Positions 60,803 through 61,282 are shown, numbered from the stretch's first letter. The stretch: 64,000 nt of DNA from Escherichia coli (GCF_001677475.2 NZ_CP015229.1), one strand, 5' to 3'. The notes: generated by a model from the letters alone, not told the origin. Program-made: numbers and translations.

Positions 60803-61282
60803 CAGAGAGAGGATTCCATCTGTTACGTAGGTCGAAGGGGATGCGCCTATTTTGTCAGAAGCGGGGCGCGCTGTCAGGTTTCGTTTCAGATTTATCGCGT
60901 GAAGCGACCTCTTGCGAAGGTTAGGCGCACCGTCGCTGAGGTCGCTGAGATTGAAAGCTTCATTTTTCGTCCATGATGGCGTTGTAAATCTGGAACTGAT
61001 TTATTTCCTTGTTTAAGGATTAAGATAATTTAAGAAATACCTGACAATATAAAAAGAATTTTCAGCCTGGTAATCTACCGCTTCAGGTCTATATTTGTGT
61101 TGAATATATTTTGCGCGGAAGTATTCATCTAACGGGGCTCTCTATTTTTTAGAGTAGAGTGCATATTTTCAATTAAGACATTCTTAGAGGATAAAAAGGA
61201 ATTTTACTACTATCAGTGTCTTAAATAAAGTAATCGGTTATATACGGATGTGGAGTCGATAAATGAGATTGAAGGAATATAT

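Follow-up and report, generated by a model that had tools for sequence, protein, structure and literature searches.

The closest described counterpart of the promoter upstream of sfmA in Escherichia coli is PfimA of Salmonella. Both lie at the same chromosomal position, divergent from folD (ybcI-ybcJ-folD / fimA), an arrangement also present in Citrobacter and E. albertii, and both precede orthologous genes: the orthology of sfm and Salmonella fim is published, and SfmA is 64% identical to FimA. The two promoters are moreover AT-rich and non-invertible and, according to the literature, have FimZ as a dedicated activator. The FimZ footprint at Salmonella fimA extends from -98 to -47 relative to the mapped start site (Baek 2011), and the same study describes two 'H-NS' motifs, AAAATAAGA (-100 to -92) and ATTAAAAGA (-51 to -43), together with Lrp motifs 3 and 4. 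Conserved blocks shared by the two loci fall in the proximal part of this footprint, in the -10 region and in a leader of ~190 nt. Unlike Salmonella, E. coli lacks 12 bp in the middle of the footprint and carries TTAAGA twice in place of AATAAGA / TCTTAT / AATAAGA; FimY, FimW and fimI are absent; and sfm is cryptic, whereas Salmonella expresses its operon in static broth.

The sfm promoter also resembles the H-NS-silenced K-12 fimbrial promoters of elf/ycb, yad, yeh, yra and others, as far as the relayed account of Korea et al. 2010 goes, in its AT-rich upstream DNA, poor laboratory expression, H-NS repression and SlyA-type induction. It has a cluster-encoded activator, FimZ, and an experimentally dissected ortholog in Salmonella. 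To our knowledge, most other cryptic K-12 fimbrial operons have neither an activator in their own cluster nor a dissected ortholog. As relayed by PMC5797941, Korea et al. 2010 placed sfm among seven poorly expressed K-12 chaperone-usher operons and reported it to be H-NS-repressed; when driven constitutively, the operon was functional and promoted binding to eukaryotic cells. PMC5797941 further counts sfm among the operons bound by H-NS (after Oshima 2006), and the same paper reports that over-production of SlyA, an H-NS antagonist, raised sfmHF 2.6-fold. Both the operon and its pili respond to FimZ, an orphan response regulator that induces them (Ogawa et al. 2022, as described in papers that cite it); according to the available account of Ogawa 2022, this induction of pili genes requires phosphorylation of FimZ, and the FimZ-sfm interaction is curated in RegulonDB v12.

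A third relative is the fimS switch of E. coli, which is likewise AT-rich and upstream of a type-1-like major pilin gene, and which is bound by nucleoid proteins. In contrast to the sfm spacer, where none of these was found, fimS has 9-bp inverted repeats, the FimB/FimE recombinases and two orientations.

Boundaries and composition of the folD-sfmA spacer

The window analyzed here is a 64,000-nt stretch of E. coli DNA (GCF_001677475.2 NZ_CP015229.1) with a GC content of 54.2%. Within it, cysS, ybcI, ybcJ and folD lie on one side of the spacer, and sfmA, sfmC and sfmD diverge on the other, the 3' end of the window falling inside sfmD. A first-pass annotation had placed a 480-bp separation between folD and sfmA at 60803-61282, and these coordinates are exact: the folD start codon (minus strand) and the sfmA ATG at 61283 (plus strand) both adjoin the spacer. 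The K-12 spacer measures 470 bp (NC_000913.3 557742-558211), the shortfall consisting of one 9-bp tandem duplication and one T. The best listed match to the spacer was the E. coli human stool isolate 2012EL-2448 (99.6% identity); among the matches listed, O111:H- and O157:H7 genomes reached ~99.2%, and K-12-type laboratory strains showed 96.7%.

The same annotation had described the entire 480 bp as low in GC, which holds for one part of the spacer and fails for the other. Overall the spacer has 39% GC, and the best two-segment split, at 60950, separates a left part of 55.8% (60803-60949, 147 bp), close to the window average, from a right part of 31.5% (60950-61282, 333 bp). Ranked by GC among all windows of its size in the 64 kb, a 307-bp core (60976-61282; 31.3% GC) is within the lowest 0.3%. 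The AT-richness is real and non-random but limited to about two-thirds of the spacer, on the sfmA side. The spacer is a composite of a conserved folD promoter and 5' UTR, an E. coli-specific filler of normal GC content, and an AT-rich sfmA regulatory region, with the following features.

60800-60802, minus strand: folD start codon ATG, of an ORF at 59936-60802 that encodes 288 aa and is K-12 folD (b0529)
60803-60886, minus strand: folD 5' UTR and core promoter (promoter scan; near-invariance in Escherichia, Salmonella and Citrobacter)
60877-60872, minus strand: predicted folD -35, CTGACA (promoter scan; 17-bp spacer to the -10)
60857-60849, minus strand: predicted folD extended -10, TGaCAAAAT (promoter scan)
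60886-60888, no strand: left edge of the sfmACDHF-fimZ block (matches end at query base 84 in genomes lacking the cluster; junction alignment)
60887-60949, no strand: E. coli-specific filler of normal GC content, single copy per genome and unalignable to E. albertii, Salmonella or Citrobacter
60932-60949, no strand: polymorphic 9-bp tandem duplication, a direct repeat of GTCGCTGAG, absent from K-12
60950-61282, plus strand: AT-rich block holding the sfmA upstream regulatory region, promoter and leader, a presumed H-NS target (change-point and window statistics; H-NS repression from the literature)

A second AT-rich spacer (61826-62044, 219 bp, 33% GC) separates sfmA from sfmC, at the place where Salmonella and Citrobacter carry fimI; no fimI remnant was detectable in it. 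Genomic SELEX peaks of the RpoH holoenzyme have been reported in this sfmA-sfmC spacer and inside sfmD (PMC5493296).

Conservation was assessed by aligning six, then ten, orthologous spacers from loci located through exact-protein contig look-ups, all lying between ybcJ-folD and a fimA/sfmA ortholog. They came from E. coli, a divergent Escherichia, E. albertii, S. enterica, an arizonae-like S. enterica (so called by its FimA match to subsp. arizonae), three Citrobacter and one metagenome contig. Synteny with a folD-divergent fimA/sfmA ortholog was observed in eight loci across Salmonella, Citrobacter and Escherichia.

In this alignment the 85 bp adjoining folD (60803-~60886) are almost unchanged across genera. 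Of the whole spacer, furthermore, every matching E. coli genome (5424/5424) retains just this 84-bp folD-proximal block. Spacing from the promoter elements places the predicted folD transcription start near 60842, with a predicted 5' UTR of ~40 nt; RNA folding of this 5' UTR gave no stable structure (z = +1.19), and a riboswitch-like structure there was rejected on that value. A five-codon ORF (ATGGAATCCTCTCTCTGA; 60802-60819, minus strand) has a stop codon that overlaps the folD ATG (TGATG). Escherichia and Salmonella share it apart from a synonymous TCC-to-TCT change, and its ATG is ACG in Citrobacter werkmanii; the conserved GGA is therefore more plausibly the folD ribosome-binding site, and the ORF probably reflects that site, not a leader peptide.

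The remainder of the spacer can be lost together with the operon. Of 5426 complete E. coli genomes, ~1150-1250 lack the sfmACDHF-fimZ cluster, ST131 and several poultry isolates among them. In two cluster-less genomes that were inspected, the whole of sfmACDHF-fimZ is gone and folD lies 270 bp from tRNA-argU. The left junction falls precisely where the conserved folD promoter ends on its upstream side, this promoter being kept where sfm is deleted, and the right junction lies ~80 bp upstream of the fimZ start. The cluster occupies this position in Salmonella and Citrobacter too, so that its absence is most simply read as a deletion.

The filler differs from its positional equivalents in Salmonella and Citrobacter, where 70-95 bp of a different GC-rich sequence occupy the folD-proximal position. 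Derivation from a repeated mobile element was rejected because the filler is single copy in each genome. Within it, an imperfect palindrome (60903-60946) folds as DNA at -16.8 kcal/mol (z = -3.8), and none of 200 shuffled sequences did as well. The 9-bp duplication lengthens the outer stem to 9 bp, and the K-12 allele folds less well (-12.8 kcal/mol). By identity bands, ~1722 genomes carry the duplicated allele and ~2577 the single copy, a ratio of ~40:60 among sfm-positive genomes. Read from sequence, the palindrome is not terminator-like on either strand, no U-run following the stem. One conceivable role is that of an insulator: as a barrier, or by binding a protein, it could shield the essential folD promoter from an H-NS filament on the sfm side.

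Predicted sfmA promoter and candidate FimZ boxes

To place the sfmA promoter we used the Salmonella locus as a reference. Our numbering of that locus reproduces the Baek 2011 sequences of both 'H-NS' motifs and of Lrp motifs 3 and 4, which indicates that the anchor is sound. In the alignment, the Salmonella +1 lies opposite window base 61098 and the -10 region opposite TATATT at 61090-61095. The features of this region are as follows.

61020-61025 and 61030-61035, plus strand: direct TTAAGA hexamers, 10 bp apart, candidate FimZ boxes (over-representation; alignment to the Salmonella footprint)
61031-61065, plus strand: most conserved stretch upstream of the promoter, TAAGAAATACCT ... TATAAAAAGAATTTTCA (column identity of 80% or more in 12-nt windows; ten sequences, three genera)
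61090-61095, plus strand: predicted sfmA -10, TATATT (alignment to the Salmonella fimA -10 region; loose promoter scan)
61256-61265, plus strand: TCGATAAATG, a 9/10 match to the H-NS motif TCGATAAATT (motif search)

The predicted -35 is poor (CTGGTA, 3/6 in the loose scan), and a second TATATT at 61105 would by sequence alone make an equally good -10. A weak -35 fits an activator-dependent promoter. We infer a transcription start near 61100, at 61098 from the alignment and at 61101-61103 from the spacing to the -10.

With a start near 61102, the two TTAAGA hexamers would be centred at about -80 and -70. The hexamer occurs four times in the AT-rich part, counting both strands, against 0.64 expected (P ~0.006, for a motif chosen post hoc). 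Opposite the second copy, the FimZ footprint of Salmonella has AATAAGA, and the block at 61031-61065 is the counterpart of the promoter-proximal half of that footprint and of the ATTAAAAGA 'H-NS motif' (Baek 2011). The distal half, which in Salmonella holds a TCTTAT/ATAAGA inverted pair, is not conserved, and it is here that E. coli lacks the 12 bp; in E. albertii the candidate boxes are degenerate in the alignment. We regard the TTAAGA pair as candidate FimZ boxes.

Two sigma-70-like sites on the minus strand, TTGAAA-17-AAAAAT (61144-61172) and TTACCA-16-TATATT (61046-61073), point toward folD. Such sites are of the kind thought to be spurious promoters that H-NS suppresses.

The motif TCGATAAATT, reportedly described by Lang and colleagues in 2007, is said to be bound by H-NS with high affinity. 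The match at 61256-61265 is not significant by itself: six such matches occur in the window against 3.3 expected, and one of them lies in the spacer.

Taken as a whole, the spacer is probably explained by an already-known system, a silenced sfmA promoter with a long leader that diverges from the folD promoter. The proposal that sfm has a cryptic fimbrial promoter, silenced by H-NS and lacking an invertible element, is supported by the AT-rich 333 bp and by the searches for a switch reported below. Repression by H-NS, like induction by FimZ, is carried over from the published accounts. The first-pass reading is also refined: a silenced promoter without a switch stands, the folD-proximal 147 bp turn out to be folD promoter plus filler, and FimZ, which it had left unmentioned, is added. 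The H-NS and FimZ control of sfm is already published, and the silenced-promoter interpretation is not new.

The spacer would then comprise four parts: an 85-bp folD promoter with a short 5' UTR, a filler of ~60 bp, ~150 bp of AT-rich DNA with a weak sigma-70 promoter, and a leader of ~180 nt. H-NS coating the AT-rich DNA, together with the lack of a usable -35, would keep sfmA off. Phosphorylated FimZ would bind upstream, most likely at the TTAAGA repeats near -80 and -70, and turn sfmA on by recruiting RNA polymerase and displacing H-NS, a counter-silencing step that, like the exact -10, is proposed here. In K-12, as in the genome closest to the window, fimZ comes after sfmF. In both, FimY and FimW genes are absent between fimZ and argU; E. 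coli has lost these two regulators, of which FimY drives fimZ expression in Salmonella, and this probably helps to account for the silence of sfm under laboratory conditions.

The sfmA leader and possible CsrA binding

Alignment with the Salmonella +1 gives sfmA a predicted 5' leader of ~180-185 nt. Its features are listed below.

61098-61282, plus strand: predicted sfmA 5' leader (alignment with the Salmonella +1; the Salmonella leader is 194 nt)
61180-61195, plus strand: conserved leader block ATTCTTAGAGGATAAA, containing GGA (TTTACAGGATGCAG in Salmonella; conservation profile and alignment)
61211-61223, plus strand: IHF-like site TATCAGTGTCTTA (our own scan; a weak single match, 8/9 specified positions)
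61246-61248, plus strand: GGA unchanged in 10/10 orthologous leaders, within ACGGATGT here and ACAGGATGC in Salmonella (alignment, conservation profile)
61272-61285, plus strand: Shine-Dalgarno AAGGAA and the sfmA ATG at 61283 (AAGG and ATGAAA invariant in three genera)

SfmA itself has 180 aa in the K-12 annotation. A further conserved leader block reads TGTC..TAAT. Both conserved internal GGA blocks read ACAGGATGC in Salmonella, and we take the block at 61180-61195 to resemble the core of a CsrA site, A(N)GGA.

These blocks bear on the possibility that the long leader RNA also binds or titrates CsrA, coupling sfm to other CsrA-dependent genes, as the Salmonella fimAICDHF 5' UTR does. That 5' UTR sequesters CsrA according to the accessible account of Sterzenbach 2013; its predicted E. 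coli ortholog is about as long (185 versus 194 nt); and three GGA-containing blocks are kept across genera, at 61188-61192, at 61246-61248 and in the Shine-Dalgarno region. The leader nevertheless shows no significant GGA enrichment (six observed against 3.9 expected from shuffles, P ~0.1). It has no significant RNA fold either (z = -0.78), and RNAalifold over eight orthologs returned a consensus of about zero energy, supporting one small hairpin, mainly from Salmonella and Citrobacter. In those two genera, a hairpin loop presents the GGA of 61246-61248 (ACAGGAUG), whereas in E. coli the hairpin is degraded. Moreover, the operon is normally silent, so that there would be little RNA to titrate anything. 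We consider the CsrA account unlikely, though it fares best among the alternatives; its stricter form, in which the sfmA leader retains CsrA binding and FimZ induction would soak up CsrA, seems to us a little less likely still.

Several variants of the leader region were seen. The divergent Escherichia locus carries a tandem CAGCTA array (~3-4 copies) in the sfmA leader that neither E. coli nor E. albertii has. In strain STEC384, an IS1A is inserted in the predicted leader (equivalent to ~61195), and sfmD is also frameshifted. An IS1-associated deletion in strain S1-ZIM-01-A runs from the AT-rich region (from the equivalent of ~60982 onward) into sfmH. The IS1 events in STEC384 and S1-ZIM-01-A are signs of ongoing operon decay in some lineages.

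Other accounts of the AT-rich segment

Decay could in principle account for the whole AT-rich stretch, which would then be functionless DNA before a dead operon, have no working promoter and owe its composition to relaxed selection and foreign origin. In line with this, sfm is silent in laboratory culture (as summarized in PMC5797941), the whole cluster is deleted in about a fifth of E. coli genomes, IS1 insertions and a frameshifted sfmD occur, and FimZ no longer has its partners FimY and FimW. Against it, discrete promoter and leader blocks are kept across three genera where the flanking bases are not, and the core is 98-99% identical in most E. coli genomes sampled. In addition, FimZ induces the operon and its pili in the cited accounts of Ogawa 2022, and constitutively driven sfm was functional and promoted eukaryotic-cell binding in Korea et al. 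2010, as relayed by PMC5797941. We judge such decay improbable as the general explanation.

Still less probable is an unannotated small RNA or small protein gene hidden in the spacer. Mechanical ORFs of 43 and 34 aa do begin there, and the AT-rich part holds the two leftward sigma-70-like sites; yet the ORFs lie in folD-promoter sequence or in sequence unconserved outside E. coli, and promoter-like hexamers are expected in AT-rich DNA. K-12 RefSeq annotates nothing in the spacer, and an Rfam scan of 60500-61600 at E <= 10 returned two chance matches (E = 3.3 and 8.2), both far below gathering scores.

An invertible promoter of the fimS type, flipped by a recombinase and making sfm phase-variable, has a known precedent in the E. 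coli fim operon, and perfect 8-bp inverted repeats separated by 50-450 bp do occur in the spacer, five pairs in all, among them ATTTAAGA/TCTTAAAT at 61028 and 61219. This count is within chance, with 1.9 pairs expected and 9% of shuffles doing as well. No perfect inverted repeat of at least 9 bp with a separation of 50-450 bp was present in the spacer (0 observed; 0.54 expected from shuffles), nor anything within two mismatches of the fimS repeat TTGGGGCCA. The first-pass observation, made by eye, that fim-switch-like inverted repeats are lacking was thus borne out. There is also no recombinase gene between folD and argU, where the annotation of K-12 and of the nearest genome gives sfmACDHF and fimZ only; intD is a prophage gene beyond argU. 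Among the 4269 complete genomes that carry the AT-rich core, 4190 match it collinearly along 80% or more of its length; of the ~79 partial matches, two were inspected, and both were IS1 events (an IS1A insertion and an IS1-associated deletion). The orthologous Salmonella promoter, finally, is documented as non-invertible. The repeat, recombinase and collinearity evidence together effectively refutes an invertible element.

Switches of the pap type, in which Dam methylation of paired GATC sites competes with Lrp, are common among chaperone-usher operons. Such a switch was rejected here with next to no residual probability: the 480-bp spacer (60803-61282) contains no GATC site and the cluster no papI- or papB-like gene, even though Lrp binds and regulates the orthologous fimA promoter of Salmonella (Baek 2011). 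By analogy with Salmonella, Lrp may modulate the sfmA promoter.

The preferred reading therefore remains that of an H-NS-silenced, FimZ-inducible sfmA promoter. In these terms the region is a textbook-style silenced fimbrial promoter that looks horizontally acquired, and the value of the analysis is mainly negative and descriptive. The promoter, candidate FimZ boxes and leader, placed by homology, provide concrete coordinates for reactivating or engineering sfm. Were the leader to bind CsrA after all, induction of sfm would reset other CsrA-dependent surface structures in E. coli.
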